A DNA stretch of 64,000 nt from Pirellulales bacterium (GTDB lineage: Bacteria; Planctomycetota; Planctomycetia; Pirellulales; JADZDJ01), in the NCBI GenBank assembly GCA_963716135.1, contig OY970289.1, forward strand, positions 4,047,744 through 4,111,743, read 5' to 3'. Shown here one piece after another: positions 33,709-60,860 of this stretch; the first letter of the stretch is position 1; each line of letters starts with the position of its first letter. Made by a program: the position numbers and the translations under genes. Under the pieces are notes generated by a model that did not search any database, was not told where the DNA came from, and saw nothing but the letters and a program-made list of their open reading frames with translations.

Positions 33709-33715
33709 TGATTGC

Positions 33716-34548: not shown

Positions 34549-34585
34549 CAGTACTTCCTGGAGTGGAGATCGCTAAACCCGACCA

Positions 34586-38144: not shown

Positions 38145-38159
38145 AAAGGCAACCGATTG

Positions 38160-38180: not shown

Positions 38181-38201
38181 AAAATGACCACGTGTGTCGC
38201 G

Positions 38202-40258: not shown

Positions 40259-40279
40259 CCGGAGGGCAACGCCCTCCGG
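40259..40279. repeat. REP-like palindrome (copy 2)
   Basis: CCGGAGGGCAACGCCCTCCGG, immediately 3' of the stop of the minus-strand gene 40305..40583. Confidence 0.75.
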
Positions 40280-40304
40280 AGCACTACCACGTGTTGTGCG
40301 CGGC

Positions 40305-40583
40305 CTAAATCGTCACCGGCCGGCTGGCGTGATCAAAATCGCTGATCGCCAGCAGAATCATCCCGCAAAAGCTGGTAGCAGACAGCATCCAGCAGGTGCT
40401 GCCCATGACCCACGCCATCGACGTCGAGATGCCGACAGCAACCAGGGCCAGGACAAAGAAGCCATGGCACAAAGTCTGGTGCCGGCTGCGGATGCTCAAT
40501 CGAGCTAGCATTCCGCCGATCCAACCGACCATCTGCACCAGGGCAAACAGAAAAATCGCCGCCGTGGGACACAAATCCGCCAT
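40305..40583 (-). CDS. small 3-TM membrane protein
   Basis: MADLCPTAAIFLFALVQMVGWIGGMLA... 92 aa, three hydrophobic helices. Confidence 0.45.
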   Translation of the reverse strand: MADLCPTAAIFLFALVQMVGWIGGMLARLSIRSRHQTLCHGFFVLALVAVGISTSMAWVMGSTCWMLSATSFCGMILLAISDFDHASRPVTI

Positions 40584-40831
40584 CGCGTCACGCTCCCCGG
40601 ATCCTTCCGGTGTGTGAGTACACTGCGGTCCAGCATCCATGCCGGGCCTGGCGACGGCATAAAGCGATTCGCGTGCCAAGAAAGGCCGCGATCAGCGCAC
40701 TCGGCGGTGCGCGCACTCATTTGCTCGATATGCCCCGAGAATTTCGCCGATTTTTTTTCGCGCAATAGCGCGCCAGCGGCCCAGCGCACGCCGCCGGCTT
40801 TGCAAATTCTACAACCGGCAAAGTCCAATAG

Positions 40832-40852
40832 CCGGAGGGCAACCCCTTCCGG
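40832..40852. repeat. REP-like palindrome (copy 3, one mismatch)
   Basis: CCGGAGGGCAACCCCTTCCGG, just 3' of the stop of 40872..42821. Confidence 0.7.
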
Positions 40853-40871
40853 AGCCGCCAGGCAGGATGTT

Positions 40872-42821
40872 CTACCGATCCCGCCCACCGCCATCGCTGT
40901 GCGCCGTGCTAGCGGGCTTCAACCGCGACTTCAATTCCGTCTCGAGGTCCGTGATGTGAATGTTGCGGTTCACCACTTTCCCCTTGTCGTCGACCAGAAT
41001 CATGGTGGGCAACGTGAGAATGCCCATCTCGTTGGCCAACCGGCTATCCAATCCGCCCGTCTCGTACAACTGCGGCCAGGGCAGCCGGTTCTTGGTCAAA
41101 TAGTCGCTCAAATCGGCGAAGTTGTTGTCCAGGCTCACGCCGATCAGCGTGAAACCGTTCTTGCCGTACCGGGCATACATTTCTTTCAGCTGTGCCAGAT
41201 CGACTTTGGACGGTTCGCACCACGTGGCCCAATAGTCGATCAGCACGTATTTGCCGCGATACTTCGAAATATCTTCGACCTGGCCCAGCGTGTTTTTCGC
41301 GCGCAACTGCATCGGCTGACCGACGCTGTCCAGCCGCGTGATGGCGCCGCGGGCCTTCACCGCCGCCGAGCTGCCGCCGAAATCCGAAACCAACTGGCCG
41401 TACCACTTCTTGGCCTTCTCTTCCTGGCCGGCGAACTCTTGTGCCAAGCCAAGCTGCAGCAGGGCTTCGGCCGTATCGTTAGCCTTGGGAAAATCCTTGA
41501 CGAACTGTTCAAGATTTTCCAGCCATTCGGCTTGCACTTTCACAAAATCGATCTCGTGCTTTTGCAGCTTCGAGCCATAGTCGGCTTGCAAATAGCGATA
41601 TTTCACCGTCGGCGCCAAAGCCGCGTCGGCGGGATTGGCAGCCAATTTCTCGGCCAATGCCTTCAGCTTTTCCACGCCGGCCGGATAGGCGCCGGTCTGA
41701 GCGGCCGCACTGATGGCGTCGGCGAATTGCTTGATCCACTGCGGGCGATCTTTTTCCCCGATTTCGTCGGCGATTTGCAACATCAACTCCGCGCGGCGAT
41801 CGTTCAGTTTTGCCTGCTCGGCTTCGTTGGTGGCACGGCCCACGGCTTCGTCGAGCTTCGATAGCTCGTCCATCATCTTCTGCACTTGCTCGTTCGGATT
41901 GCCTTCTGCGGCGGTGGCGGTCGAAGATTCCGGACGAGTGGTCGTGTTGAAGAAGAAGCCGTCGGAATCGGCGATTTTCTCGGCCGATTCAGGAATCGAC
42001 GGGGCGTCGATCACTCGCCACGTGTCGCCCAATTTGACCAGCGTGCCAATCTGCACCTGGGCATCTTTGCCCTCGGTTTCGATCATCGCCAGCACGTTTT
42101 CATAGACCGTGATGTCCTTGCCGGCCGCATCGCCGGTGGGAACCAGGCCGGGCTTCGTGCCGCCGAAATGCACCCAATTCGTTTTGGGGCCAATGGCTTT
42201 TTGTTTGCGCACCACGTCGGCGAAACCGTCGGGCGCGGCCGTGATTTTGTCGTTGAGCTGCTTCGCTTTGGCGGCGCTCAGGCCTAGCGATTTGGCTTCG
42301 GCCGGCGTCAGCAGCACGCGGGCGAAGCGGGCGGGATCTTTGTCGCGGATTGCCAGCACTACTTCGGCGGTCACTTCCTCCGGCGAAATCGCCTTCCAAG
42401 AATCGACCTTACCGTCCTCCGCCTTATCAAGTCCCCACCGCGTGCCGGCCGTGTTTAGCCAGCGCGACTGATCGGCCTTGCCGTTGTAGTTCGAATCGAT
42501 GTCGCGGTACACTTCGATGCCATCCTTGAAATAGCTCCAGCGATCGACCACGTTGTCGCCGTTGGTGTCGACGAATTCACGCAGAATTTGCCCGTGCGGA
42601 TTGCGCACGACCCAACCCGTTTGGCCGTCCACTTTCTCCGCCTTGATGGTGCATTTCACGGCATCGGCAGAGCTGGGAATCTCGTAATCGACGTCTTTTT
42701 GGATGGGGGCGAGCTTCAGCGCCTGTTCGACGCTGGGCGCGGCGGCCTTGGCAAATGCCGGTAGAAAGCAGACGGAGGTGGCGACGGCCAATATTTGCAG
42801 TCGGCGAAGCGTGTGGGTCAT
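40872..42821 (-). CDS. secreted TlpA/thioredoxin-like protein with long N-terminal extension; active site WCEPS (CxxS)
   Basis: Signal MTHTLRRLQILAVATSVCFLPAFAKA. Calcium-binding-like VDTNGDNVVDRW...DSNYNGKAD. The C-terminal GKYVLIDYWATWCEPSKVDLAQLKEMYARYGKNGFTLIGVSLD is a thioredoxin fold. Confidence 0.75.
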   Translation of the reverse strand: MTHTLRRLQILAVATSVCFLPAFAKAAAPSVEQALKLAPIQKDVDYEIPSSADAVKCTIKAEKVDGQTGWVVRNPHGQILREFVDTNGDNVVDRWSYFKDGIEVYRDIDSNYNGKADQSRWLNTAGTRWGLDKAEDGKVDSWKAISPEEVTAEVVLAIRDKDPARFARVLLTPAEAKSLGLSAAKAKQLNDKITAAPDGFADVVRKQKAIGPKTNWVHFGGTKPGLVPTGDAAGKDITVYENVLAMIETEGKDAQVQIGTLVKLGDTWRVIDAPSIPESAEKIADSDGFFFNTTTRPESSTATAAEGNPNEQVQKMMDELSKLDEAVGRATNEAEQAKLNDRRAELMLQIADEIGEKDRPQWIKQFADAISAAAQTGAYPAGVEKLKALAEKLAANPADAALAPTVKYRYLQADYGSKLQKHEIDFVKVQAEWLENLEQFVKDFPKANDTAEALLQLGLAQEFAGQEEKAKKWYGQLVSDFGGSSAAVKARGAITRLDSVGQPMQLRAKNTLGQVEDISKYRGKYVLIDYWATWCEPSKVDLAQLKEMYARYGKNGFTLIGVSLDNNFADLSDYLTKNRLPWPQLYETGGLDSRLANEMGILTLPTMILVDDKGKVVNRNIHITDLETELKSRLKPASTAHSDGGGRDR

Positions 42822-42881
42822 CGGTACGATCCTCGTATAGCGATTAGCAGTTAGTTTGTAGGGGACTTTCACACCAACTAG

Positions 42882-42902
42882 CCGGAGGTCAACGACCTCC
42901 GG
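42882..42902. repeat. REP-like palindrome (copy 4)
   Basis: CCGGAGGTCAACGACCTCCGG. Confidence 0.75.
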
Positions 42903-43123
42903 AGATCAACCGCGTAGCGATCCACCGCCAAATGGTGGTAATCGCCCGCGCAGGCAAGTGCGCAATCACAAACCCTGCTATCTTTTTCGGCCAACCGGGG
43001 TATGCCGCATCAGCCTGGAAAAACGACTTTTCCGCCTGCGGAGACTGTTAGGGCAGGTCGATCCGAGGTGGCGTTGTTAGAATCGGTGAGCAGTGGCCGA
43101 AAATCAGGCGTCGCGGCGTGCCT

Positions 43124-43151
43124 TTGACAGCCATCAAGCAGTCAATAAAAT
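43124..43151 (+). promoter_or_regulatory. sigma70-type promoter candidate for the tRNA-Ile/Ala transcription unit
   Basis: TTGACA (43124-43129), 16-nt spacer, TAAAAT (43146-43151), about 85 nt upstream of tRNA-Ile. Confidence 0.5.
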
Positions 43152-43239
43152 ACGCTATCTTGATTGAGAGGCCTGTGTCCGCGGACTTACTAGCGAACCA
43201 CGTCGCTTCCGCGAAAGTCGATACCTGGCAGGCTCATCG

Positions 43240-43313
43240 GCGCGCATAGCTCAGTTGGTTAGAGCGCCACCCTGATAAGGTGGAGGTCCTTAGTTCGAAT
43301 CTAAGTGCGCGCA
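43240..43313 (+). tRNA. tRNA-Ile (anticodon GAU)
   Basis: GCGCGCA acceptor, GCTCAGTTGGTTAGAGC D-arm, CCACC-CTGATAA-GGTGG anticodon arm, CTTAGTTCGAATCTAAG T-arm, TGCGCGC-A. Confidence 0.9.
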
Positions 43314-43356
43314 CTATTTCGCAGAACCCTAATTCCTGAACTCTGAACCCTTCACC

Positions 43357-43395
43357 GGGGACGTAGCTCAATTGGGAGAGCGCCGGCTTTGCAAG
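43357..43395 (+). pseudogene. tRNA-Ala (UGC) 5' fragment, truncated in or just after the anticodon loop
   Basis: GGGGACGTAGCTCAATTGGGAGAGCGCCGGCTTTGCAAG is a perfect tRNA-Ala 5' half (G3:U70-type acceptor start, anticodon TGC at 43390-43392). The expected 3' stem (CCGG), variable loop and T-arm are absent; the sequence continues GCAAAAACGCCAGTCGG. Confidence 0.7.
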
Positions 43396-44366
43396 GCAAA
43401 AACGCCAGTCGGCATTAGACCGAGGAAACATCGAGAAAAGCCTACGTTTCTCGGCACTTTCTGTGCTTTCGGCCACTCTCACCAATAGGTGTATAACCGT
43501 TCACAAAATGGTGTTTGCGGGTGTCATTGACACCCGCTAAAAAAACTTCGGGCGTATGGGAGATCGTGAACACCCGTCCGCCGCTGAAACTTTGCGCCAT
43601 TGCCCCCAGGATGCACGCCAGCGGCCTCGGTCGATGTTTGACACTTCCAGCCGCAGCGGCCGATAGAGTGCCGCTAACGCGATTTCGTAGAGCAGCACCC
43701 ATTCCGCCGGATACGACCGACCGAGCTCAGCACACGGCCGGAGACGCAGAACGGCCATGGCCACGCTGCTCCCAGTACCTGCAGACCTCGGCTGCTAGCA
43801 CACCCGATCCCTTGGTTCAGTGGCTCAGATGCCCGGGTGACCTCGAGCCGGCCGGAACTTGTTTCCAGAACCGGTACTTCCAACCCGCAGGGCATAGCGG
43901 CATGGGCACCACCACCGTGATGGCTTTATCGTCGGCCTTGAGCACGTGTAGCGCCCGCCGGAGGCAAATCGAAACCCACCGCGAGGGAGTTGGCCGCAGT
44001 AGTGTGGGTTTTGAGTGTGGCCAAACCAGACGCCGAGTCGATCGTGCAGGATCGGCGTAGATGCGGCAGGGCAGCTCATGGCCGATTCAAAGGAGGGACA
44101 AACCGACCGCTTCGGGGCGAATCCCCCCTTGTGTGGATATTTGATGTCAAATAAATCTCTCGCCCTGCCGCGCCGGCTAACTCTGTGGCTGCCGTCACGT
44201 CGATGTGCAGCACCGGTCGCGGATCATTTGAATCGGCTCTCGGCTTCGGCAACTACCAAAGTACTATCCGATCCGCGAGCCGACCCAATGCATTCTGGAC
44301 AGCGATCGCCAGCGCCGCCACCTCGGGAAGTACTCATCGCACGAAGTGCCGCTCAAGAAACGCCGC

Positions 44367-44557: not shown

Positions 44558-44829
44558 GTCTGGAAATACTGGTGAATGTTGCACGGTTTCGGGTATCTAT
44601 TGCTCCACTGGCACTTCTGACCATTCGGTTGAACGATCCATTCCGAAAAGTCACGAGTTTCTGCCTTCTTCCAGCCTACCGCCGGCAGCGTTAAACTTGA
44701 TCCCGCTGCAGTAAACTTCGGCAGGCGAGCCTCAAGAGTAGTAGGTACTCCTAACGGCTGCTGAAGTACGTCCCGCGCTGCATTGCGCGGGCGGCGAGAA
44801 TTAAACGAGTGACAGCGCGCAAAGCAAAT

Positions 44830-46695
44830 ATGGCGCAGAAGAAATACGACGACCTGAGCAAGGGAGAACTGATTCGCCTGCTCGAAACTCGCGACGGCCG
44901 CGATGCCACTCGATACGGCTTGGTCTGGGAGGCCAACGAGATCGAGCGCGATAAAGCCCTCAATGCCGACTTCGTCGCTCTCGACCTCGACGCCGAATTG
45001 TCCTGTCCCAGGACAGCGTCTGCGTGGAAAAATCTCATCATTGAAGGCGACAACTTCGATGCCCTCCGCTACCTCCGCATGACCTTCGCCGGCAGAGTGA
45101 AGTGCATCCTGATTGATCCGCCGTATAACACGGGCAAAAAGGATTTCATCTTCAATGACCATTTTGTCGGCGAGGATGATTTATGGCGATTCTCGACATG
45201 GTTGGAATTTCTCTATCAACGCCTCATGATTGCCCGCGATCTGCTGCGCGAAGACGGCGTGTTCCTTTGTTTCATCAACGATGAAAATCGCGCCAAGTTG
45301 GAATTGCTGCTTGACGAAGTGTTTAAAGGCCGGCGAATTGGCAGCTTTGTCTGGCGGACAAAGGACTCCGCTAACGATGCTGGCGGCAATCTCAGTCAGG
45401 TGCATGAACATGTGCTCGTTTATGCAAATCCGCTGTTTGCCTTTGCCGGCAAGACTTTGAGTTTGGATGATTATCGCAACCCAGACAACGACCCGGAAGG
45501 ACCCTGGACTCCACAGCCATTGACGAAAGCTGAAACATTTAAGACACGGGAAAATACTTATTATCCCATCCAAAATCCGGATACGGGCTATTGGTACCCG
45601 TGTGATCCTGAGCGTGTGTGGGCCTACGCGACTGAGACGAAACTAAAACCCGGCACGAAACTGCGATCGGACACAATTGAAGATCTAATTCGCAAGAAGG
45701 AAATCTACTTCCCGTTCTGCGGGCCGTCGGACGTAATGCAATGGGACACCCGAGAAGAATTGCTTGAAGCGGTCCGCCGTGGCGATGGCCCCATCCTACC
45801 CAAGAAGAAAACCCCATTGCTGCGGGAGGACTTGCCCGACTTTGATTTCTGGATTGGCAAGCCAATTGCGCCAGGCCGGCCGTCGCGGAAGGATTACTTA
45901 AAGCGGAAACAAAAGCTCGTTGCCCCCGTGAGCAGCTGGATCGCGGGACAAAACGAAGAGGTCGATTTCTTTTATGACGAACTCGATGAGCAACTTGAGT
46001 TGATGCGCTCACCGCGGGGTGGCGAAGGCACGGATGCTGTGAACGCGATACTTGGTACTAAAGCATTCAATCATCCCAAACCTCCCACACTCGTCCGCAA
46101 CCTCCTACGTCAATCAACTGGCCCGAATGATCTTGTCTTAGATTTCTTCGCCGGCAGTGGAACAACAGCGCAGGCCGTGCTGGAACTTAGCAAGTCTGAT
46201 AGTAATGATGGCGAACGGCGATTCATCCTTGTGTCTAATACAGAAGCCACGAAGGACGAGCCGGACAAAAACATCTGCCTGGATGTATGTAGGAAGCGAG
46301 TCGAGAATGTCATCAATGGGTATCGAAATACGCCAGGTGCGGGCGGCGACTTTGCCTACCTCCGCTGCCGGCGGATCGCGCCCGCCATGCTCACCGACAT
46401 CGACCATGCCCAGGTCTGGACGGCGTTGCAACTCACGCACATGCCGATGCTCTCGGTGCTTGATGACGCCAAGCCGCTGGCAATTGCCGATCATGACGAT
46501 CAGCGATTGATCTACATCCCGCATTTCCACGCAAAGGATGCAAGGGCGCTAGCCAAGGCAGTCAAACAAAGCCCAGCGGTCATCGTTTACACCTGGCAAC
46601 CTGATCTGGTGAGGGCCCGACTACGCGAGGCGAACAACGTGCAGGTCGAAGCCGTGCCGGAGAGCTTGGCTCGGCGGTTCGGAATGCGGATTTGA
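44830..46695 (+). CDS. mod: type III restriction-modification methyltransferase (Mod; beta-class N6-adenine/N4-cytosine MTase)
   Basis: Motif IV ILIDPPYNTG precedes motif I VLDFFAGSGTTAQAV, with a large variable domain between them. It is directly followed by a Res-like helicase-nuclease. Confidence 0.85.
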   Translation: MAQKKYDDLSKGELIRLLETRDGRDATRYGLVWEANEIERDKALNADFVALDLDAELSCPRTASAWKNLIIEGDNFDALRYLRMTFAGRVKCILIDPPYNTGKKDFIFNDHFVGEDDLWRFSTWLEFLYQRLMIARDLLREDGVFLCFINDENRAKLELLLDEVFKGRRIGSFVWRTKDSANDAGGNLSQVHEHVLVYANPLFAFAGKTLSLDDYRNPDNDPEGPWTPQPLTKAETFKTRENTYYPIQNPDTGYWYPCDPERVWAYATETKLKPGTKLRSDTIEDLIRKKEIYFPFCGPSDVMQWDTREELLEAVRRGDGPILPKKKTPLLREDLPDFDFWIGKPIAPGRPSRKDYLKRKQKLVAPVSSWIAGQNEEVDFFYDELDEQLELMRSPRGGEGTDAVNAILGTKAFNHPKPPTLVRNLLRQSTGPNDLVLDFFAGSGTTAQAVLELSKSDSNDGERRFILVSNTEATKDEPDKNICLDVCRKRVENVINGYRNTPGAGGDFAYLRCRRIAPAMLTDIDHAQVWTALQLTHMPMLSVLDDAKPLAIADHDDQRLIYIPHFHAKDARALAKAVKQSPAVIVYTWQPDLVRARLREANNVQVEAVPESLARRFGMRI

Positions 46696-46699
46696 ACTC

Positions 46700-49153
46700 A
46701 TGGCGATAATTACCCTCAAACCGTTCCAACAACAGGCCGTCGACAGTGCCATCGCGGTTTTCGACCACATGCGCTCGATTCTCGATACCGCCGGTGCGAA
46801 TGAAGAAAACCGCGCGACAGCGATTTACGACAACGGGTATCTGCTGATCGAAGCCCCCACTGGATCGGGCAAGACGCTGATGGCGGGGAACATCGTGGAG
46901 CGGGTAAGCGCGGCTGACCGCGTCGTCTGGTTCTGGTTTGCACCGTTTAAAGGCGTGGTGGATCAATCCGCCGCGTTTTTGCGAGAGCAGTTTCAAGGGC
47001 TGCGTCTGCGTACGATGATTGAAGACCGTAATCCGATTGGGACGCGCAGTGGGGATGTGTTCGTGACGACATGGGGACTGGTTGCCACCCGGGTGCGCGA
47101 CCGCAGAAGCGTCCGGCAGAGCGGCGAGCTAAATGGGAGCGTGGATGACTTGGTCGTTTCACTCCGCGAGCAGGGATTTCGCATCGGCGTTGTAGTAGAC
47201 GAAGCGCATCACGGATTCCACGGCGACACGCAGGCGGCAGTTTTTCTCCGAACCGTGCTCAAGCCGGAATTCACAATCCTTGTGACCGCCACGCCGGATG
47301 ACGCGGACTTGCGTGACCTTCAAGAACGGATGCAGATCGGCAACATTCACCGTGTAGGTGTGAGCAGAACTGACGCGGTGGGACCGGGACCGGCAGAAGG
47401 TTTGATTAAACGCGGCGTCAAAGTGATCGCGTGGCGGCTAGAAGAAGGATCGGATGCGCTGGTCGATTTCGAAACAACAGCGCTGCGGGACGGGGCGGAA
47501 CTTCACAAATTTCTGAAGGCCGAATTGCGGAGGGCGGGGATCAACTTGACGCCGCTGATGCTGGTGCAGGTCGATTCTAAGCCTAAGTCGGTCGAACGGG
47601 CAAAAGAAAAGTTGGTAGCGCTGGGATTCACCGAATCGCAGATCGCAATACACACGGCGGATGAGCCAGACGCGGGGCTCTTGGCACTGGCGAACGATGA
47701 GACGCGCGAGGTATTGATCTTTAAGATGGCAGTGGCTCTGGGATTCGACGCGCCACGGGCATGGGCGCTGGTCTCAATGCGAGCCGCGCAGGACGAGGAC
47801 TTTGGCGTGCAATTGGTAGGACGCATCCTTCGCGTGCATCGCCGACTGCAAGGAAAGGTCGTACCCGACGTATTGCGATACGGATATGTGTTGCTCGCAG
47901 ATATCGCCGCGCAAGGCGGACTCGATGCCGCCGGGCAGCGGATCAACCGCATGCGAACGCAGTACGCTACAGTTAGCCCGACAACGATTATCGTGCATGC
48001 GAGCGGACAGAATCTGGTGCAGTCGGTCAATGCGGGCGGACAACTCGTTTTTAACCCTACTCCGCCTGCAGGTGCGCTCTTCACGCCACCACCCACTCCG
48101 GTACCTGATTCAGAAGGCAATGTTGACCCAGCGCAAATGATGCTTTGGCAGACCTCGTGGGCTCCGACGGAGATGAGGGACACGTTGCGGGCGGCGCTGG
48201 TCTCGCCGCCGCCGGTGCTGGGGCAGTATTCGTACAGTCTGCGAGACGGCGTGCCGCGGAAGTTCAAGACTCAGGAATTTCCGGAGGATTGCGAGATTAC
48301 TGAAGAGGAATGCGCCGAGCACTTTGTTGTGGGAGCTGAAAAACTTCTCGCGGCTATACTCGGCAGCGACTCGGTGCGCGTGCAAAAGAAAACGATTGAG
48401 ATCTTCACGCAGCAAATCCAACTAGAGTTCAGCTACGCCCCCCCATCGCTGGAAGAAATGCAACGACGAGCGCTGAAGGCGTTGGTGAGTTGCGGTATGT
48501 TTAGCGCCAAAGAACTTCGCCGGGCCCTGGCGAATCGTCTATATCAGTTGCTCGCTGCCAAGGGTGTGGAAGATGCGAACGACCGGGATCGGGTATACCA
48601 ATATCTTGATGTGCTGCTGTCGCAGTATCCTCAATTGCTACGAGATGCGCAACGAGCGGCCCTGGCAGCAAAGGCCGAGGTCTTTGAAGCTGCTGAGTTG
48701 CCTGCGAATATCGAATCGCAAACACCCCTCTCGCCCTCTCCGCTTAATATCTATGGTATCTACCCGTCCAGCCTGAACTCTTGGGAGCGTCCGTTCGCCG
48801 AGTATCTCGATGCAGATGACACAAATACTGTCCTGTGGTGGCACCGCAACCTGCCGCACAAGGAGTGGTCCATAAATGTGCTGCTGGAATCGGGACGCGG
48901 ATTCTTCCCAGACTTCATCGTTGGCATCAATGATCGGCCGCGTGAAGACGGAGGATTGCTTGCCGACACAAAGTACGCTTACGAGACCGCAAGGGAGCTT
49001 CCGAAACTGCTGGCAGAGCACGCTGCGTATGGTCGCGTAGTGATCGTCACGAAAGACACGGCCCAAAGGTGGGTAGTCGCTGAGCGAGACCCGCATACGG
49101 GCGCGGGCCGAATAGGAAAGCCCTTTCGTATCTCTGATGCCGCGAGGTATTGA
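46700..49153 (+). CDS. res: type III restriction enzyme Res subunit (SF2 helicase plus PD-(D/E)xK nuclease)
   Basis: Motif I LIEAPTGSGKT, motif II VVVDEAHHG, and the C-terminal FPDFIV...LLADTKY nuclease-like motif. The start is 4 nt after the mod stop. Confidence 0.85.
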   Translation: MAIITLKPFQQQAVDSAIAVFDHMRSILDTAGANEENRATAIYDNGYLLIEAPTGSGKTLMAGNIVERVSAADRVVWFWFAPFKGVVDQSAAFLREQFQGLRLRTMIEDRNPIGTRSGDVFVTTWGLVATRVRDRRSVRQSGELNGSVDDLVVSLREQGFRIGVVVDEAHHGFHGDTQAAVFLRTVLKPEFTILVTATPDDADLRDLQERMQIGNIHRVGVSRTDAVGPGPAEGLIKRGVKVIAWRLEEGSDALVDFETTALRDGAELHKFLKAELRRAGINLTPLMLVQVDSKPKSVERAKEKLVALGFTESQIAIHTADEPDAGLLALANDETREVLIFKMAVALGFDAPRAWALVSMRAAQDEDFGVQLVGRILRVHRRLQGKVVPDVLRYGYVLLADIAAQGGLDAAGQRINRMRTQYATVSPTTIIVHASGQNLVQSVNAGGQLVFNPTPPAGALFTPPPTPVPDSEGNVDPAQMMLWQTSWAPTEMRDTLRAALVSPPPVLGQYSYSLRDGVPRKFKTQEFPEDCEITEEECAEHFVVGAEKLLAAILGSDSVRVQKKTIEIFTQQIQLEFSYAPPSLEEMQRRALKALVSCGMFSAKELRRALANRLYQLLAAKGVEDANDRDRVYQYLDVLLSQYPQLLRDAQRAALAAKAEVFEAAELPANIESQTPLSPSPLNIYGIYPSSLNSWERPFAEYLDADDTNTVLWWHRNLPHKEWSINVLLESGRGFFPDFIVGINDRPREDGGLLADTKYAYETARELPKLLAEHAAYGRVVIVTKDTAQRWVVAERDPHTGAGRIGKPFRISDAARY

Positions 49154-49539
49154 TGCATTTGATAGACTAATACTTGGACTAGGGTGCAGTCGGGGGCACT
49201 GTCCGCCTTGAGAGTACTAACACAGCGTTTGCAGATCCGGGCACTCTCCCACCAAAAGCGCACACCTGATTGTACCCCTTCGGCCCGAAGCGCGCCATCC
49301 GTAGGGTAGTGGTGGTCAGTCCACTCCTGAGAATTTTTGGTTCCCCGTCGCTTACGAAAATCCAGCAACAACCCGCTCGCTAACGCAATCGTAGCGCAAA
49401 TGTCCCAAGAGAGATAATACGGCCAGCGTGAATGCGGATCGGCAACAATTCGCATCAGGTCAGCTACCAACGGGAACACTACCACTGCACTGACAGCCAT
49501 TCCGCCTAAAGCATTGATCAGAAACCAAGGGATATTCAT
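48979..49539 (-). CDS. hypothetical membrane protein (3' extent doubtful)
   Basis: MNIPWFLINALGGMAVSAVVVFPLVADL... has 2-3 TM helices. The listed ORF overlaps the res 3' end by about 175 nt, so the real stop may be hidden by an indel, or the ORF may be spurious. Confidence 0.3.
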   Translation of the reverse strand: MNIPWFLINALGGMAVSAVVVFPLVADLMRIVADPHSRWPYYLSWDICATIALASGLLLDFRKRRGTKNSQEWTDHHYPTDGALRAEGVQSGVRFWWESARICKRCVSTLKADSAPDCTLVQVLVYQMHQYLAASEIRKGFPIRPAPVCGSRSATTHLWAVSFVTITTRPYAACSASSFGSSLAVS

Positions 49540-49563: not shown

Positions 49564-50141
49564 ATGGAAGCATTCACAGCCCTACGCACGAAAGTGCGCG
49601 AGAAGCGGACCGGGCCATTAACGAGGCCAAAGACGACTACGCGGCCACGCTGACGCGGATCGCGGCGCTAGAGCAAGACCTGTTAGGGCGCGACCTATCG
49701 ACGCATAAGAGCATCGCCAGTTGCATCGAGCGCGTGATTCCCGCCGACAGGCAATTCACCACCGTTGACGTACTGGCAAGCCTAGAGGCATTCGACCCGC
49801 GCGGCAACTGGCGGAAGCGCAGCATCGACCACCATGTCTCCCGGCTACGAGCGCGGGGCCTGGTGAAGCGATTGAGCAAGGCTAAGGGGACCGGCGAACC
49901 GGCCATCTACGTTCGTGCTGGTGCGGCGGTAGAACCGTTCCCGTTCGACGATCAAACGATGATGGAAGTCCCCCGCGAAGTGCTGGGCGACAAGCGGATG
50001 ACGATGACTGAACTGGCTGTGGCGATGCTGGAAGCGGGCTATCGAACCACGATGAAACCGAAGGCGTTGCGGACGGCGCTGGGGTGGCTATGCGGAAAAA
50101 CCCGACTGATATCCGGCCAGAGGTCGGAAAATGGGCATTAA
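49564..50141 (+). CDS. hypothetical coiled-coil plus winged-helix-like protein, apparent 1-nt frameshift near 49607
   Basis: MEAFTALRTKVREKR joins to DRAINEAKDDYAATLTRIAALEQDL... (ORF 49734..50141 frame). HHVSRLRARGLVKRL resembles a wHTH recognition helix. Confidence 0.45.
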
Positions 50142-50162: not shown

Positions 50163-50530
50163 TTGACTATTTTGCAGCTTTCGGCTTAGGCTGAATCCGC
50201 AAACGGTATGGTCCGAACAACTCGAATTAAATTGCCGCAAGGCAGATTTAGCCCGTTCCGCCGTACCGTTTGCAGGTGACGTGGGGAACGGGTTTTTTGT
50301 TATTGGAACGTAAGCCGACGGAAGGCGGCGTGCGAACCATTGGCTTTTTGGTGGGAAAGCCCGCGCGATCTCTGCGGAGATGGTGCGGGCTTTTTTATTG
50401 GACATTGCGGACCGAGGGAACAGCAATGAGAAGACCAGTAAAGCGCTACTGATGCCGTTGCCGGTCGGTAGGGCGCAAAAAGAGCCCGGTGAGCGTTTGT
50501 TGTTTAGCGATAGTACAACGCTCACCGGGC
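50163..50530 (+). ncRNA. promoter-like element followed by three strong hairpins, two with U-tracts (candidate small RNAs or leader upstream of tRNA-like gene A)
   Basis: TTGACT (50163)-18 nt-TAGGCT. Long stem GCAAACGGTA/TACCGTTTGC enclosing a TGCC-GCAA-GGCA tetraloop hairpin. Terminators CCCGTTCC...GGAACGGGTTTTTT (about 50252-50298) and AGCCCGCGCGATCTC-TGCG-GAGATGGTGCGGGCTTTTTT (about 50358-50396). A perfect 15-bp hairpin AGCCCGGTGAGCGTT/AACGCTCACCGGGCT lies at about 50483-50530. Confidence 0.4.
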
Positions 50531-50545
50531 TAGGCGATACTACTC

Positions 50546-50636
50546 GGAAGGTGGTCCGCGTCTTGGTGGCGCAGCGGTCTTTAAAACCGCTGGAGGACCC
50601 GGTTTACACCGGCGGGTTTGATTCCCACGCCTTCCG
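50546..50636 (+). tRNA. non-canonical class II (long variable arm) tRNA-like gene, apparent anticodon UUA (would read the UAA stop), 8-bp acceptor stem; allo-tRNA/tRNA-Sec-like architecture
   Basis: By-eye fold: acceptor GGAAGGTG/CGCCTTCC (8 bp), anticodon stem CAGCGGT/ACCGCTG with 7-nt loop CTTTAAA, variable arm CCGG-TTTACA-CCGG, T-arm GGG-TTTGATT-CCC, discriminator G, then a T-run. Not verified with tRNAscan-SE. Confidence 0.55.
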
Positions 50637-50714
50637 TTTTTGCAGTTTAGGGCAAAATTACAGAAAACGCCAGTGAAATTACGAAACTAATTCTTTTTGC
50701 AATCGGTGCGCCCG

Positions 50715-51338
50715 ATGCTTGCATTTGTTGACGAATCCGGTGACCTAGGGATGAAGCTAGAATCTGGCTCGTCGGATTACTTCGGCGTGATCGCCGTATG
50801 GTTTCCTGACAAGGACGAGGCCCAGCGGTGCGACGATGCTATCGCCGCGTTGCGGACGAAAATACCGGTTCTCAAAACTGAATTTCATTTCACCAAGCTC
50901 AAGCACTACCACCGTGAGCAGTTTTTCGATTTGGTCAAAGGTTTTGATTTCCAGTATTTTGGTGTCTATTTGGATAAGCGCAAAATGGCCGAGAAGTCGC
51001 TCGGCTTCCCAAGGCCGTTCACCCACATGGCCGTGCAGTACCTATTCGCCGGCATGGCCGACAAGTTATCCGATGTGATTATCACAATCGACGAAACGGG
51101 CAGCAGCGAGTTTCGCAAGGCACTGGCGAAAGACTTGCCGAAGGCCGTCAACGGCAACGGGAATCCTCGCGCGATCAAGAAGGTAAAGTGCGCACGATCT
51201 AATGGTAACAATCTGCTGCAAATGGCCGATATGGTGTGCGGCGCCGTGTGCCGATCGATAGGAAAAAAACAACCACACCCGGACGCTTACCGTGAGATGA
51301 TTCATCACAAAGAATTGATCGTGACGATCTTGCCATAG
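50715..51338 (+). CDS. DUF3800 domain protein
   Basis: N-terminal MLAFVDESGD motif and C-terminal NNLLQMADMVCGAV motif are typical of DUF3800. About 207 aa. Confidence 0.7.
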   Translation: MLAFVDESGDLGMKLESGSSDYFGVIAVWFPDKDEAQRCDDAIAALRTKIPVLKTEFHFTKLKHYHREQFFDLVKGFDFQYFGVYLDKRKMAEKSLGFPRPFTHMAVQYLFAGMADKLSDVIITIDETGSSEFRKALAKDLPKAVNGNGNPRAIKKVKCARSNGNNLLQMADMVCGAVCRSIGKKQPHPDAYREMIHHKELIVTILP

Positions 51339-51648
51339 GCGCATAAAAAACCCGCAGCCTATCCCTTTCGGGCACGCACGCCAGTACGGCGACAGTTCGG
51401 CTACGGGCCAATTACATCTATAGAATATCGTCTAGGCTCGCTGAGTCAACTCAAGAAAACCCGTGTTTTTTCTGGTTTTCACAGAAACATCGTCCCGCCA
51501 GCACCTTAGGATGCCCTCGTTCTTTTGGCGGTCAAAGCGACAGTCGGGCGGTTGCGAGAGACCCATGCTTGCAGGACGCGGTCTTGGCCCGTATGTAAGT
51601 CACAGCCCCACCCACTGACAGCGCAGCATAGCGGACCTCTCGCTACTC

Positions 51649-51740
51649 GGAGAGTGTTCCGCGTCTTGGTGGCGCAGCAGCCTTATACCCTGCCGTAGGA
51701 GTCGGCAACCGCCGATAGGGTTCGATTCCCCCTCTCTCCG
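51649..51740 (+). tRNA. second non-canonical class II tRNA-like gene, apparent anticodon UAU (AUA codon); paralogue of the 50546 element
   Basis: It shares the 5' block TCCGCGTCTTGGTGGCGCAGC with element A. Acceptor GGAGAGTG/CTCTCTCC (one U-U mismatch), anticodon stem GCAG/CTGC with loop CTTATAC (C-C closing), variable arm TCGGC-AACC-GCCGA, T-arm GGG-TTCGATT-CCC, discriminator G. Confidence 0.5.
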
Positions 51741-51914
51741 CTAGTCCCGCTAGGACTGGTCGCACGCCCTTAGCAGGGCACGCCGGACCCACGTAGACAA
51801 CTTCACGCCTTCCCGCTTGGCGGCCAGCTCGCAAGCCCTATCTCGGCTCCCGCGCATCGTTCGCCCAATTGGCGAAAACCTACTCGCACGAGCAGGTCCC
51901 GCTACAGTCCGGCC

Positions 51915-52199
51915 ACGATAATAAGCGCCGAGAAGACGCCGCGCTTCAGCACGTCCTATGCGGAACAGTTCAACCTTGGCTTGCGGATGCACGTGCGGCG
52001 ATACACGCGATTGACGAATGCCCACAGCAAAACGGTGCGCCACCCCACGGCGATGACGGCGCTGTTTGTGGCCTTTTACAACTACTGCCGGAACAATTCG
52101 GCTTGCGGTAAGAAAACCGCGCCAGCGATGGCGGCTCGATTGAGCAAACACGTTTGGACGATCAAAGAATTGCTTGAGAGCGCGGCGGTGGTCAGTTAG
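51915..52199 (+). pseudogene. IS1-family transposase C-terminal remnant
   Basis: STSYAEQFNLGLRMHVRRYTRLTNAHSKTVRHPTAMTALFVAFYNYCR...TPAMAARLSKHVWTIKELL matches the conserved C-terminal block of IS1-type (InsB-like) transposases (ER.NL.lR...R..R.t..fSK). No N-terminal or DDE region lies upstream. Confidence 0.6.
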
Positions 52200-52746: not shown

Positions 52747-53235
52747 AGTGCTACCCCTCAGATTTTAAGCGTAATTGGGCGGGTGGTGTTACAGACTAAC
52801 ACGGCTGTTACGCGTGCAAAGGGCATTTGCTTAACTTTTTTCGGCATTTCTGCATTCGTAAACGAAGGCAATTTGCTGTCATCGGCTTATGCCCGCCTGT
52901 GCGCTTCTAGCGGGACAGTGCCCAGATCCGCCCCGCAAACTCGGGCACATCCGAGTCGTGATAGATCTGTAATTCTTATGAAATGGGATCGCAAGCAACG
53001 ATACCTGCGCGGTCATCACGGTTTAGAAATGCGCGACATGATCGCGATGCCGGGTTCAGGAACTAAATTTCTTTCACTCCTGCGCCATAAATCACGGACG
53101 CGGCTTAGCTAGGCGCTTCCGCTTCCTTCTGGCATCGGCCCCGGCGCAGCTTGCCGAGCTGCCTTTCGGGGCATCCCGATGACGGCCTGCATGCTCGCAG
53201 GTCGTCTTTCTTCCTCTTAGCCTGAGGAGACAGCC

Positions 53236-58733: not shown

Positions 58734-60860
58734 ATGCGCCGTAGCTTCAACCAAATGACATCGGTTTCATTGCGGAACGCACTTGCATGCTTGCGGTTGG
58801 CTGTCTTCGGAGTTACGCCAACGCTCTTCGCCGCAAATGCTTGGGCGGCCGGTCCGGTCGAATTGCAGCGCACGATTGCCACGCTCGAATCGTGCGAAGG
58901 CAAAATCGAGTCAGCGCAGTGGAAGGCGCATCTCTCCGTCGTCGAACTGGCCAACCCAAACGACATCACGTCGATCATCAAGACAAGGCCCGAAAAGATT
59001 GAGGCTGCCGTAGTTTGGGATCGAAAGAGAAAGCGCATTCGCGTCGACTATCAAAGTGTTCTCCAATGGCAGAATGGAACCGCCCCATATCTTTCGGATC
59101 GCCAAGGAATATGTTTCGACGGCGCACTGTACCGATCTTGGAGGATTGGCAAAGCCGGGACCGAGATTCCAAAAGAAAACGACGACTTCGCAGAAGGCAT
59201 TGTTCGCAACGATCGTCCAGAGATTACGCAGCTCGAAATGCGTTCTTGGGGAATGGAATATTTGCCGCCGTTTTTCGACGATCGTTCGGTCGGTCACGAC
59301 CCCCAACCGCTATCGCAACTCCTCCGCCACGCGAAGGCAGACGGCATTTCAATAACGATCGTGGAAGATGACGCTGCAATCTGGACGATCGCCATCAACG
59401 ATCAGAAGAGATATCACGACATGATGGAGATTCGGATCGATCCAACGAAAGGCTGCAAACTATTGGGGATTAAATGTCTTTCGACAAAGGAACATGTTGT
59501 CTGGTGCGAGCTTCAAATTGCCTCACGCGAGGTGTCGCCGGGCATTTGGGCGCCCGATCAATGGTCCTGTGTGTACTTGCTCGACAAACCCTGCGTGGCA
59601 TCGATCTGGAAGTATTCCGACGTGGCAATCAATGTGAGGCTGCCCGAAAATGCATTTGAATTCAATTTTCCAGCAGGCACTCGAGTCGATGATCGGGTAA
59701 GTAATACCAGATACAAGATTGGAGCGGTTGAAAACGACGAAGCGAAATCAGCCGATGCGGCGGATTCGAAATCAGCCAGCTTGGAAGTGAATTTCGACAT
59801 GTCGCGCGCGGATGCGCGGCGCTTCAAAGCCGTCACGGTACGAGCGCAACAGCGGTCCGCCGGTGAGAACACCTATCTAGATATCGCAAGCCATACGGCC
59901 TCGAATTTCGAGCCATTCACGCTGGCGAAACTGCCTGCAGGCGACTATCGGGTTGTAGTCAACACCACGCCGGCAGAAGATGGGATAAAACCCTCGACAG
60001 GCGAACCCAATGCGGGACGGTTTTCCTACTTCAATCAGATTTCGCTGCACTCCGGAGAAACGCAGCGAGTGGCCGTCCAGGTGCCACCGCTCGATCTAAA
60101 AGCATTCCGCGGCCAACGATCGGCGACGATCCGAATTGAAACAGCCGACGGTCGACCCGCAGCCGTCGGCCGGGAATGCAGCGTCCAGTTTGACGACGGC
60201 CACTATGGCGATTTGCCGGTCTTTACGGGGAAGGTGCCGGAATCGGGCGAAGTGATATTGAAAGAGATTACCGACGAGCGGCCTCCGACCATCGATGCTC
60301 GCGATCCATATTCGATCACGATCGACAAATTTCGCTTGGGCACATTCGGATTTCGCTCGACGGAGGCATCAGAGCAATTTAAATTTGCATGGTCGCCGCA
60401 AGCTGGCGATCTTGCGCCAGAAGTCGAATTATTAAATACGGCGGATACAAAGACGATTAAGCTCAGCGACCTGCGAGGCAAAGTCGTGTTGGTCGATTTT
60501 TGGGCCACAGATTGTGCGATGTGTCCCTCAGCATTGAAGATGCTCGATCAACTGGTTGCCGAACAGGCGGACGGATGGAAAGATCGCGTAGTGGTGGTGC
60601 CGCTAAGCATCGACGACGAGGCAACGCAAGCGAAGCAGCGCCTGGTTGAACTTGGGTTCACGCATCTCACGGCGTATTGGAGTGGAAGCGAGGGGAAAGT
60701 CGGCTGGGATTCTCCCGCCGCGCACGCCTATGTTGTGCATGGGGTTCCGGAATCATTGCTGATCGATCGCGATGGGCACATCATTTGGCGCGGCTACCCG
60801 GCAATGGATAATGGTGGTAATCGGACGTTAGAAGCACGAATTGAATCCGCTTTGAAGTAA
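58734..60860 (+). CDS. secreted multidomain protein with C-terminal TlpA-like thioredoxin domain (CxxC = CAMC)
   Basis: Signal ...LAVFGVTPTLFAANAWA. C-terminal GKVVLVDFWATDCAMCPSALKMLDQL...VVVVPLSIDDE...GVPESLLIDRDGHIIW. Confidence 0.75.
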   Translation: MRRSFNQMTSVSLRNALACLRLAVFGVTPTLFAANAWAAGPVELQRTIATLESCEGKIESAQWKAHLSVVELANPNDITSIIKTRPEKIEAAVVWDRKRKRIRVDYQSVLQWQNGTAPYLSDRQGICFDGALYRSWRIGKAGTEIPKENDDFAEGIVRNDRPEITQLEMRSWGMEYLPPFFDDRSVGHDPQPLSQLLRHAKADGISITIVEDDAAIWTIAINDQKRYHDMMEIRIDPTKGCKLLGIKCLSTKEHVVWCELQIASREVSPGIWAPDQWSCVYLLDKPCVASIWKYSDVAINVRLPENAFEFNFPAGTRVDDRVSNTRYKIGAVENDEAKSADAADSKSASLEVNFDMSRADARRFKAVTVRAQQRSAGENTYLDIASHTASNFEPFTLAKLPAGDYRVVVNTTPAEDGIKPSTGEPNAGRFSYFNQISLHSGETQRVAVQVPPLDLKAFRGQRSATIRIETADGRPAAVGRECSVQFDDGHYGDLPVFTGKVPESGEVILKEITDERPPTIDARDPYSITIDKFRLGTFGFRSTEASEQFKFAWSPQAGDLAPEVELLNTADTKTIKLSDLRGKVVLVDFWATDCAMCPSALKMLDQLVAEQADGWKDRVVVVPLSIDDEATQAKQRLVELGFTHLTAYWSGSEGKVGWDSPAAHAYVVHGVPESLLIDRDGHIIWRGYPAMDNGGNRTLEARIESALK

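Follow-up and report, generated by a model that had tools for sequence, protein, structure and literature searches.

Two allo-tRNAs beside the remains of an IS1-family transposon in a Pirellulales genome, one of them a candidate ochre suppressor

Allo-tRNAs were first found as sub-threshold matches to tRNA-Sec and were reported from Clostridia, Proteobacteria and Acidobacteria (Mukai et al. 2017, NAR 45:2776; PMC5389517). [quoted passage not shown] The most abundant group carries the anticodon UAU. Its members have stem-destabilising mismatches and possible five-way junctions and lie near toxin-antitoxin genes and transposon-related ORFs, and all six variants tested were inactive in translation, two of them being toxic (PMC5389517). 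A second described system is the DUF3800-IX RNA, which lies a few to ~40 nt past the stop codon of a DUF3800 gene, on the opposite strand (Weinberg et al. 2017, NAR 45:10811; RF02968). For DUF3800, an RNase H-like fold and an occurrence together with tRNA-cleaving CRISPR effectors have been reported.

The window analysed here, that is, the whole stretch of 64,000 nt, contains representatives of both systems. A sequence-only reading had described two tRNA-like elements flanking a DUF3800 gene as class II, tRNA-Sec-like and of the allo-tRNA type. This assignment is upheld by sub-threshold tRNA-Sec matches, by the described features of the class and by covariation within the family, and the elements belong to the already known allo-tRNA class; they were matched to the allo-tRNAs of Mukai et al. 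by described features rather than by sequence comparison. The same reading had passed over the DUF3800-IX sRNA and the remnants of an RHH gene and an IS1-family transposase downstream of the second element.

Two tRNA-like elements and their folds

Both elements lie on the plus strand, as first proposed, and a hairpin precedes the first of them:

50546..50636, plus strand: element A, allo-tRNA(UUA), from ARAGORN, Rfam, the minimum-free-energy (MFE) fold and the family alignment and model
51649..51740, plus strand: element B, allo-tRNA(UAU) of 9/3-type geometry, from Rfam and the family alignment and model
50483..50531, plus strand: perfect hairpin of 15 bp whose end lies 14 nt before element A, from the inverted-repeat search

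The G discriminators, the long variable arms and the T-loops closed by three G:C pairs that had been read by eye hold for both elements. Element A consists of an 8-bp acceptor, in which G8 pairs with C as proposed, a 5-bp D hairpin, a 6-bp anticodon stem, a 5-bp V-arm (CCGGU-UUAC-ACCGG) and a 3-bp T-stem, with an unpaired G9/A layer between the acceptor stem and the T-stem. The 7-nt anticodon loop, CUUUAAA, presents the anticodon UUA between the canonical residues C32 U33 and A37 A38; the T-loop, UUUGAUU, has U rather than C at position 56, and the gene does not encode CCA. Besides the proper UUA loop, element A has Ser-type identity features: G73, the long V-arm, G1:C72, G2:C71 and A3:U70. 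ARAGORN reports it as a tRNA-Stop with anticodon tta (50545-50637), the Rfam tRNA-Sec model scores it at 42.6 bits (E 1e-6 in a 1.7-kb search), and its MFE structure is cloverleaf-like (z = -3.1), with none of 200 shuffles being equally stable.

Element B has the anticodon loop CUUAUAC (anticodon UAU), the V-arm GUCGGC-AACC-GCCGAU and the T-loop UUCGAUU. Three of its four mismatches (U7/U, U9/C, A/C at the anticodon-stem base and C/C beside the loop) are typical of its family. Two of the checks that had been suggested gave mixed results: ARAGORN called element A and did not call element B, and tRNA-Sec was the best Rfam model for both elements, with both scores below the gathering score of 47 (25.0 bits, E 0.036, for element B). 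The single-sequence fold of element B is unconvincing (z = -1.7); the element aligns full-length with more than 50 homologues. The 21-nt block TCCGCGTCTTGGTGGCGCAGC is identical in the two elements, and the repeat search returned a 63-nt direct repeat (50540-50602 and 51643-51705) with 78% identity. The elements are paralogous, as had been proposed, and element A derives from the same family as element B.

The allo-tRNA(UAU) family and its IS1-family transposon

By sequence comparison, element B is an ordinary member of an allo-tRNA(UAU) family of ~80 copies, recovered with a D-arm 18-mer (~60) and a 3'-anchored 23-mer (another 27). The UAU loop is present in nearly all copies (the copy in locus L230 is degenerate), and nearly all genome records belong to Planctomycetota, with L086 and L139 labelled otherwise. 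In the family alignment of 52 sequences (50 full-length copies and elements A and B), 16 of the 31 cloverleaf pairs, including all five V-arm pairs, change on both sides, a level reached by 0 of 500 shuffles. Columns 1-9 pair with 91-99 (G9:C in 48 of 52) and the T-stem has 3 bp, which gives a 9/3 geometry; the D-arm stem (GCGUC/GGCGC) has 5 bp and its loop, UUGGN, 5 nt, and residues 10-12 pair just past the anticodon arm (C:G 42, U:A 4, U:G 3, mismatch 3). Conserved mismatches affect both the acceptor stem and the two ends of the anticodon stem, where the sixth pair is A/C in element B and in 51/52 sequences and a mismatch lies beside the loop in 38/52. A covariance model of the family gave 90.3 bits for element A, 88.4 bits for element B and no other strong match in the 64-kb window; both elements were part of its seed, so that these scores exclude further copies in the window and lend no independent support to either element. 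The conserved stem mismatches of the UAU group and the inactivity of its six tested members (PMC5389517) argue against the earlier suggestion that element B recodes AUA. Most probably, element B acts for the mobile element as a structured mimic of a tRNA and does not decode AUA.

In related genomes, the family belongs to a conserved unit of ~1.45 kb, composed of the allo-tRNA(UAU), an opposite-strand RHH gene and an IS1-family transposase. The transposase was found in 33 of 60 family loci, at +420 to +1450, on the strand of the tRNA and after the small RHH gene, which bears out the association of the class with mobile elements that had been mentioned; a full-length relative matches Pfam DDE_Tnp_IS1. 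The copies are similar from the tRNA 5' end onwards (position 0 +/- 2), and directly upstream lies variable cargo, mostly toxin-antitoxin genes; genes adjoining family copies include PemK/MazF, RelE-like, XRE and DUF433. In locus L129, 29-bp terminal inverted repeats (28/29 matching) enclose cargo, tRNA, RHH gene and transposase. Exact GGTAGTGTCCTAATT motifs occur upstream in two loci and right after the transposase stop in two others (L122, L158). Several allo-tRNA copies in other genomes are broken exactly at the anticodon loop, and the 3' halves of truncated copies were not found in the flanks fetched around them.

The corresponding part of the window contains the following features:

51750..51857, minus strand: RHH-like small gene remnant, C-terminus ...KLSTWVRRALLRACDQS, compared with family ORFs ending ...STWARDVLLRAARRRNR
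51897..52199, plus strand: C-terminal remnant of an IS1-family transposase (~residues 236-339), from tblastn and translation
49564..50141, plus strand: ~190-aa protein gene, disrupted near 49606 by a -1 frameshift within a run of G, from tblastn and translations
50356..50393, plus strand: terminator-like hairpin and T-run downstream of the 49564-50141 gene, from the inverted-repeat search
49231..49264, no strand: left arm of a weak 34-nt inverted repeat, possible transposon end, 82% complementary
52898..52931, no strand: right arm of the same pair
43358..43396, plus strand: 5' half of tRNA-Ala(UGC), broken just after the anticodon loop, read from the sequence

The RHH remnant region shares 72.8% DNA identity with locus L127 over -19 to +149. 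The transposase remnant is 55% identical to the transposase of L141 (tblastn, E 5e-29); ~100 C-terminal residues survive and the N-terminal ~235 are missing. The protein of the frameshifted gene is 59% identical over 165 aa to one in L113 (tblastn, E 6e-63), and neighbour clustering placed the same protein upstream of allo-tRNA(UAU) in eight related loci; the part translated from 49734 had no Pfam, NCBIfam or PADLOC match. These similarities indicate that the window locus holds decayed IS1-family transposon remains beside both elements. An intact DDE transposase and significant inverted repeats are absent from the window, and target-site duplications were seen neither there nor in the related loci. 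The 49231/52898 repeat was rejected as a pair of transposon ends, as it did not exceed shuffled controls, and related loci contain its GGGCACTGTCC motif no more often than at roughly the rate estimated for chance. The tRNA 5' end was likewise rejected as a transposon inverted repeat, having no match to the region after the transposase, and no inverted repeats were found just upstream of the transposase.

Further to the left, ARAGORN finds only an intact tRNA-Ile (43240-43314) near the tRNA-Ala half, whose 3' half was not found up to position 64000, and a 92%-identical relative loses collinearity at 43278, inside the tRNA-Ile. The tRNA-Ala half probably marks the left edge of the strain-specific island in which the locus lies. 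In the lineage, genes for host tRNA-Ala and tRNA-Ile are broken exactly at the anticodon loop. On RF00005, the tRNA-Ile and tRNA-Val of the window score 75 and 65 bits.

Element A as a candidate ochre suppressor

Element A has diverged from the family (identity to any member <=74%) and has the fewest mispairs of any aligned sequence, 1 of 31. Of 42 paired positions, 14 deviate from the family consensus, yet a single pair is broken (random P ~5e-6), and three mismatches conserved in the family are repaired in it: columns 28:47 are paired in element A alone among the 52 sequences, and 7:93 and 34:42, both mismatched in 38/52, are also paired. The low number of mispairs despite so many changes, together with the three repairs, points to selection on a canonical, decodable fold. 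No second UUA-loop copy with the D-arm of element A was present among the genome contigs searched, and the 19 matches of a metagenome search for UUA-loop copies were all chance matches in unrelated sequence; element A is the sole UUA copy found, which weighs against the reading as a suppressor.

We propose, giving this reading an even chance, that both elements are allo-tRNAs in a strain-specific island, element B being a probable tRNA mimic of the transposon and element A a candidate ochre suppressor. Element B would be the IS1-family transposon's own allo-tRNA(UAU), and element A, the DUF3800 gene and the DUF3800-IX sRNA would fill the cargo position. In element A, the anticodon would have changed from UAU to UUA while the helices were kept or repaired by compensatory substitutions. 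The element would then be transcribed and receive CCA, SerRS would charge it with serine (G73, long V-arm, GGA... acceptor), and it would insert serine at UAA, the level being probably low or conditional, with a possible benefit to the mobile element or the host. The apparent selection on its fold thus makes element A a candidate Ser-charged ochre suppressor. TAA ends ~13% of the long ORFs of the window (7/52), so that an efficient constitutive ochre suppressor would be costly. The search for in-frame TAA that the sequence-only reading had called for returned no TAA-split genes in the island within the 64-kb window. The 3-bp T-stem beside the unpaired G9/A layer and the U at T-loop position 56 also count against a tRNA role. 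If active, element A would be a natural serine-inserting ochre suppressor on a mobile element in a genome still using TAA stops, which would bear on the origin of genetic-code deviations and on allo-tRNAs as chassis for genetic-code expansion.

A possible but less probable account is that neither element decodes, element A being a tRNA-shaped RNA or a DNA site for the mobile element with a UUA triplet devoid of coding meaning; it could act as a decoy or antitoxin against tRNA-targeting toxins, as a processing signal or as a recombination site. The inactivity or toxicity of the tested UAU variants (PMC5389517) is consistent with this account, as are the toxin-antitoxin neighbours of the family, the lack of TAA-interrupted genes nearby and the short T-stem of element A, in which the extra helix 9-12:52-55 is also retained, a feature of the five-way junction in the translation-inactive UAU group. 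Breaks at the anticodon loop, in allo-tRNA copies and host tRNA-Ala and tRNA-Ile alike, are as expected for recombination sites. However, a non-decoding element A leaves its repairs at 7:93, 28:47 and 34:42 and its canonical loop (U33, A37) unexplained, and the activity of native-UUA 9/3 allo-tRNAs once converted to CUA (PMC5389517) speaks against it.

It is unlikely that element A is dead or mis-assembled, either as a pseudogene of the transposon allo-tRNA or as an allo-tRNA with a Leu or Ser anticodon disguised by a homopolymer error. The caveat about homopolymers in the assembly was well placed: the anticodon sits within runs of T and A, the loss of a T from the loop together with the gain of an A would give UAA, a reader of a Leu codon, and at least one base has probably been lost elsewhere, in the G-run near 49606. 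The decay of the surrounding transposon, the uniqueness of element A and its U at T-loop position 56 point in the same direction. Nevertheless, the compensatory pattern contradicts a pseudogene, an indel error would give a 6- or 8-nt loop unless two errors offset each other, and the step from the family loop TAT to TTA takes two substitutions rather than a change in run length.

The DUF3800 module and comparison with known systems

Between the two elements lies a module of two genes with a possible promoter:

50715..51338, plus strand: DUF3800 protein gene, 207 aa, TAG stop, Pfam PF12686 (E 1.7e-12)
51345..51409, minus strand: DUF3800-IX sRNA, convergent with the DUF3800 gene, Rfam RF02968 (67.1 bits, gathering score 36.8)
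51422..51449, minus strand: promoter-like site (TTGACT, 16 nt, TATTCT), placed for DUF3800-IX by a consensus match only

The DUF3800 protein also matches the PADLOC candidate defence family PDC-M04A (E 1.8e-10). It has 142 homologues at E <= 1e-5; in representative genomes, single-protein patterns found no close relatives and a profile search did. The sRNA ends in a U-run 7 nt from the DUF3800 stop codon; in 19 of 20 other loci it likewise lies on the opposite strand right after the stop, and in the twentieth the sole match is ~2.3 kb downstream. In this placement the module is a typical example of the known DUF3800-IX system (Weinberg et al. 2017), from which it differs in its allo-tRNA flanks, an unusual feature seen in the window.

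The special link that the word 'flanking' had implied is not borne out: the module has its own partner RNA, and allo-tRNA adjacency is rare. One of 80 DUF3800 loci has an allo-tRNA(UAU) ~1.1 kb away and one a degenerate tRNA-like element. A general coupling was rejected on the rarity of adjacency among loci on both sides, and DUF3800 with DUF3800-IX is a neighbouring module in its own right, separate from the allo-tRNA finding. In locus L015 (Acidobacteriota), a hairpin comparable to 50483..50531 precedes the tRNA-like element upstream of DUF3800. That element A, and perhaps element B, are RNA partners or substrates of DUF3800, in one system of tRNA-like RNA, RNase H-like protein and IX sRNA, is very doubtful: 78 nt separate the end of element A from DUF3800, which has the same strand, the degenerate element of L015 (UUAA loop) lies 25 nt upstream of DUF3800 with its hairpin before it, in L035 and L127 a DUF3800 and IX module has an allo-tRNA(UAU) within 1.1 to 1.4 kb, ~10/80 loci have tRNA genes or fragments no more than ~1 kb from the module, and the reported fold and CRISPR company of DUF3800 would suit such a role, but the family model finds an allo-like element in 1/80 DUF3800 loci, the five closest DUF3800 homologues have neither an allo-tRNA nor a degenerate tRNA-like element, a DUF3800 gene occurs in 1 or 2 of 60 allo-tRNA loci, DUF3800-IX already serves as the conserved partner RNA, and co-location in islands at tRNA genes explains the remaining cases.

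There is also a slim chance that the IS1-transposon allo-tRNA is a recombination or capture site marking a cargo slot, which in the window would hold a suppressor tRNA, DUF3800 and IX, possibly as a defence or addiction unit. The break in similarity at the tRNA 5' end, the differing cargo between copies and the tRNAs broken at the anticodon loop suggest this view; induced stop-codon read-through or tRNA mimicry could serve defence or addiction in such a captured unit.

Among known tRNA classes, tRNA-Sec (RF01852) shares with the elements the 8-bp acceptor and the long variable arm, and with element A the 6-bp anticodon stem. Membership was rejected on scores of 42.6 and 25.0 below the threshold of 47 and the lack of a UCA anticodon; in addition, the T-stem is 3 bp long, and the neighbourhood of the elements showed no sel genes. 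Canonical tRNA (RF00005) was also set aside, tRNA-Sec being the best clan match for both elements in 50300-52000 at E <= 10, where of overlapping clan matches only the best is reported.

The transposase of the related loci has the N-terminal zinc finger and DDE_Tnp_IS1 domain of IS1-family insertion sequences with passenger genes. The terminal inverted repeats start with GGTAGTG, which we take to resemble the GGTAATG/GGTGATG ends of IS1. The unit differs from IS1-family insertion sequences in its internal tRNA-like gene, RHH gene, variable cargo and total length of 3 to 4 kb, and the window copy in being truncated, with ends that are not defined.

With the allo-tRNAs of Mukai et al. the elements share a tRNA-Sec-like appearance, a long V-arm, a long acceptor and a short (3- to 4-bp) T-stem, which together form a 12-layer acceptor/T branch (8/4 or 9/3, not 7/5), and a non-serine anticodon combined with G73, the class having G73 or U73. 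The UAU family described here is 9/3-like, whereas the UAU group of Mukai et al. is 8/4, and the D-arm here has a 5-bp stem and a 5-nt loop instead of a 6-bp stem and a tetraloop. In the class the anticodon stem exceeds the canonical 5 bp; it has 6 bp in element A and an A/C at the sixth pair in element B. Element A, with a UUA anticodon on a UAU-type scaffold, is unlike the groups of Mukai et al., and the main text of PMC5389517 describes no fixed association with an RHH gene and an IS1-family transposase. The family is found nearly exclusively in Planctomycetota, unlike the phyla reported for the class, so that the survey extends allo-tRNAs to a new phylum. Whatever the activity of element A, the enigmatic allo-tRNA(UAU) group gains a concrete genomic identity in Planctomycetota, where it is a conserved part of an IS1-family transposon that also carries an RHH gene and toxin-antitoxin cargo.

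An IS1-family transposon around the allo-tRNA(UAU) family

The sequence at the two tRNA-like elements A and B is as the sequence-only reading described. The two share an 18-mer in the D-arm, CGCGTCTTGGTGGCGCAG, which matched 100 stretches in contigs representing one genome per species; about 60 of these are B-like elements, complete or partial, and nearly every one comes from a Planctomycetota MAG (Pirellulales, Planctomycetaceae, Thermoguttaceae). Anchoring the search at the 3′ end added 27 copies, all from Planctomycetota; the loop is UAU in nearly all of them, and they vary in one stem pair and in the fifth base of the D-loop. Two more copies were found in IMG/VR contigs, so family elements may also travel on prophage-like DNA. 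These lie on the 'viral' contigs L201 (336-427, minus strand) and L203 (11690-11805, minus strand), one being full-length and the other truncated after the V-arm.

ORFs were clustered around 60 family copies. A protein of ~330 aa, with a Pfam DDE_Tnp_IS1 match and an N-terminal zinc-finger motif, is encoded at +420 to +1450 on the strand of the tRNA in 33 of the 60 loci, and a small ORF on the opposite strand, between tRNA and transposase, has a ribbon-helix-helix (RHH)-like C-terminus, (S/L)(T/D)W(A/I)RD.L. DNA similarity among copies starts at tRNA position 0 ± 2 and reaches about +1450 in the longest pairs. Upstream, the content varies (PemK/MazF, XRE-HTH, DUF433, a RelE-like and Phd-like pair) and includes a ~200-aa protein that recurs among copies and gave no family match. 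In one locus, L129, terminal inverted repeats of 29 bp lie at -1473 and +2476 and agree at 28 of 29 positions. The sequence GGTAGTGTCCTAATT occurs exactly upstream of the tRNA in L118 and L121, directly after the transposase stop codon in L122 and L158, and at +447 in L136, and nearly exactly after the transposase stop in L089 and L164. The transposase, the RHH ORF, the limits of similarity and the inverted repeats thus identify the allo-tRNA as a part carried inside an IS1-family transposon of 3 to 4 kb, at least in this subfamily.

Remnants of the same arrangement flank the elements in the window:

49564-50141, recurrent ~200-aa protein, upstream of A, 59% identical to the copy in L113
50546-50636, plus strand, element A (anticodon UUA)
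51345-51409, minus strand, DUF3800-IX RNA, above the Rfam gathering threshold, convergent with the DUF3800 gene
51422-51449, minus strand, promoter-like site placed to drive the DUF3800-IX RNA
51649-51740, plus strand, element B (anticodon UAU)
51750-51857, minus strand, RHH-like ORF remnant downstream of B, C-terminal 35 to 45 residues in translation
51897-52199, transposase remnant after the RHH remnant, only residues ~236-339

This flanking order puts B in the place of the transposon's own allo-tRNA, and the remnants, together with the upstream ~200-aa protein, put A, the DUF3800 gene and the IX RNA in the cargo position of other copies. As for transposon ends in the window, the best inverted repeat (49231/52898) did not exceed shuffled controls.

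Folds and anticodons of elements A and B

A cloverleaf including an extra helix, formed by residues 10-12 with three G's directly after the anticodon arm, was tested on an alignment of 50 full-length copies plus A and B. Standard pairs form in 87.7% of cells and 16 of the 31 pairs change on both sides; none of 500 shuffles reaches any observed measure, and slid registers pair in 45-58% of cells. Three mismatches are typical of the family: 7:93 in the acceptor stem (unpaired in 38 of 52), 28:47 at the base of the anticodon stem (51 of 52) and 34:42 beside the loop (38 of 52). B, which shows no convincing fold alone, carries all three and one more, U9/C; since its V-arm mispairs in the per-sequence pair check are alignment artefacts, it is an ordinary family member. 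B is typical of transposon-borne allo-tRNA(UAU) and is probably non-decoding.

T-loops in the family are of two types, UUCGAUU and AUCGUAA, with positions 54 and 58 exchanged between them (alignment columns 81-87; U...A versus A...U), as if covariation preserved a reverse-Hoogsteen 54-58 pair. Near two family copies there are tRNA-like sequences with a CUUAUAA (UAU) loop (L167, ~+703 from its truncated copy; L153, ~+3199, opposite strand), one with a long variable arm and the other resembling an ordinary tRNA-Ile(UAU).

Element A is at most 74% identical to any family member in the alignment and 68% to B. Its mispairs (1 of 31) are the fewest in the alignment. When the D hairpin, which is invariant, and the V-arm, which aligns poorly, are left out, 14 of its 42 paired positions depart from the consensus; 14 substitutions placed at random would leave at most one mispair with P ~5e-6. 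Compensatory changes convert 4:96 from G:C to A:U, 5:95 from A:U to G:C, 10:54 from C:G to U:A and 31:44 from A:U to G:C, and A repairs each of the three mismatches typical of the family (7:93 to U:G; 28:47 to A:U, found in A alone; 34:42 to U:A). Folded alone, A is cloverleaf-like (-44.2 kcal/mol, z = -3.1, 0 of 200 shuffles equally stable), with a canonical anticodon loop, C-U-UUA-A-A, two substitutions from the family's UAU, conserved at 90% or more. From this pattern we infer selection on A for a canonical, decodable fold. No second copy with its D-arm and a YTTTAAA loop is present in 185,579 representative genomes, and a metagenome search for UUA-loop copies like A gave 19 matches, all by chance. 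A is a well-preserved derivative, the only one of its kind, whose anticodon is UUA.

G73, a long V-arm and a GGA... acceptor are established Ser-type features (SerRS identity). A carries all three, which Mukai et al. use likewise (PMC5389517). Being unique, well kept and equipped with a UUA anticodon, A could plausibly act as a Ser ochre suppressor, as the sequence-only reading had suggested for the case that it is functional and serylated. Counted against decoding are the extra helix, kept in A as 4 bp in the MFE fold, the T-stem of 3 bp with the adjoining layer unpaired, U at position 56 instead of the near-universal C56, the use of TAA as the stop of 7 among the window's 52 long ORFs, and the check for in-frame TAA, which found no TAA-split gene near A. 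The anticodon call is subject to a homopolymer caveat, the loop being made of A/T runs; the -1 frameshift in a G-run (49600-49612) of the gene for the ~200-aa protein, either a real pseudogene or an assembly homopolymer error, bears on trust in that loop.

A perfect 15-bp hairpin (50483-50531) ends 14 nt upstream of A, and in L015 a similar hairpin (2330-2370) ends 19 nt upstream of a tRNA-like element preceding DUF3800. The 6 nt directly upstream, CTACTC, are common to A (50540-50545) and B (51643-51648), whereas family upstream flanks are otherwise not conserved; CTCT(A/C)GC-like leaders in several copies could pair with the GGAGAG acceptor strand.

The DUF3800 module and the surrounding island

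The DUF3800 protein (207 aa) matches PF12686 and the PADLOC candidate defence family PDC-M04A. The IX RNA, absent from the sequence-only reading, ends in a U-run. In 19 of 20 subfamily loci, from Planctomycetota, Acidobacteriota and Verrucomicrobiota among others, it lies a few to ~40 nt after the DUF3800 stop on the opposite strand; in the exception, L019, the only IX match is ~2.3 kb downstream. This module was already known (Weinberg et al. 2017), and later papers on DUF3800 add only an RNase H-like fold and an association with CRISPR loci. A regular partnership of DUF3800 with allo-tRNAs did not hold up: among 80 DUF3800 loci, ARAGORN and the family model found an allo-tRNA in L035 only, the five closest homologues have none, and IS1 transposase is present in 0 of 80. 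In L015 a degenerate tRNA-like element, whose loop has 4 nt, precedes the DUF3800 gene by 25 nt, and L127 has the order allo-tRNA(UAU), RHH, transposase, DUF3800, IX. The DUF3800 gene and IX are a separate module, cargo here by happenstance.

A tRNA gene, tRNA 3′ fragment or tRNA-like element lies within ~1 kb of DUF3800 and IX in roughly 10 of the 80 loci (L011, L018, L020, L022, L026, L028, L070, L015 and L035), by a rough estimate several times chance expectation.

On the evidence of Zwf and a thioredoxin-like protein, the window belongs to Pirellulales. Its tRNA and restriction genes are:

30012-30085, tRNA-Val, detected at the Rfam gathering threshold
43240-43313, tRNA-Ile, intact, detected at the Rfam gathering threshold
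43358-43396, tRNA-Ala(UGC) 5′ half, ending just after the anticodon loop at 43396
44809-46695 and 46700-49153, type III restriction-modification pair, Mod then Res helicase-nuclease, in the same island as the allo-tRNA region and directly upstream of it

The relative genome L200, 92% identical in nucleotide sequence, is collinear over 30843-43278 and then diverges inside tRNA-Ile; its own tRNA-Ile(GAU) (reverse complement, ~12330-12370) is cut right after the anticodon loop. No 3′ half of the tRNA-Ala was found up to 64000, and G+C falls from about 0.60 to about 0.55. The loss of collinearity, the cut tRNA-Ala, the G+C drop and the restriction-modification pair place the A/B locus within a strain-specific island. 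Different island DNA follows the cut tRNA-Ala here and the cut tRNA-Ile in the relative; host tRNA genes cut exactly after the anticodon loop, with different DNA beyond, suggest that integrative elements use the anticodon loop for recombination, with a 5′ half left in place.

Truncated allo-tRNA(UAU) copies occur in other Planctomycetota (L086, L103, L123, L156, L167; also L105, L124, L136, L153), several ending in or beside the anticodon loop (e.g. ...CTTA|) before unrelated sequence; their 3′ halves were not found in the flanks examined. The island region lies between two large proteins, paralogues of each other, that have thioredoxin/redoxin domains at their C-termini (40872-42872, minus strand; 58734-60860, plus strand).

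Relation to tRNA-Sec and known allo-tRNAs

At Rfam gathering thresholds the window yields only tRNA-Ile, tRNA-Val and DUF3800-IX, and neither A nor B. ARAGORN called A as tRNA-Stop (anticodon tta) and left B uncalled. In a permissive Rfam scan of 50300-52000 the best clan match of each is tRNA-Sec, not the general tRNA model, with both below the threshold of 47 bits: 42.6 bits for A (E 1e-6) and 25 bits for B (E 0.036).

The class came to light when a search for tRNA-Sec returned allo-tRNAs as false positives (Mukai et al. 2017, PMC5389517). A and B both match the account given there, so the earlier comparison with this class was correct. UAU species are the most abundant group and UUA is among the 9/3 species; in E. 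coli the 8/4 and 9/3 species proved efficient at inserting Ser or Ala, and six allo-tRNA(UAU) species were translation-inactive (PMC5389517). Those six have destabilising mismatches and possible five-way junctions, and lie near toxin-antitoxin genes or, in one genome, overlap a transposon-related ORF (PMC5389517). The class itself is already known; what is new for it is a useful genomic context, that of a transposon-borne element.
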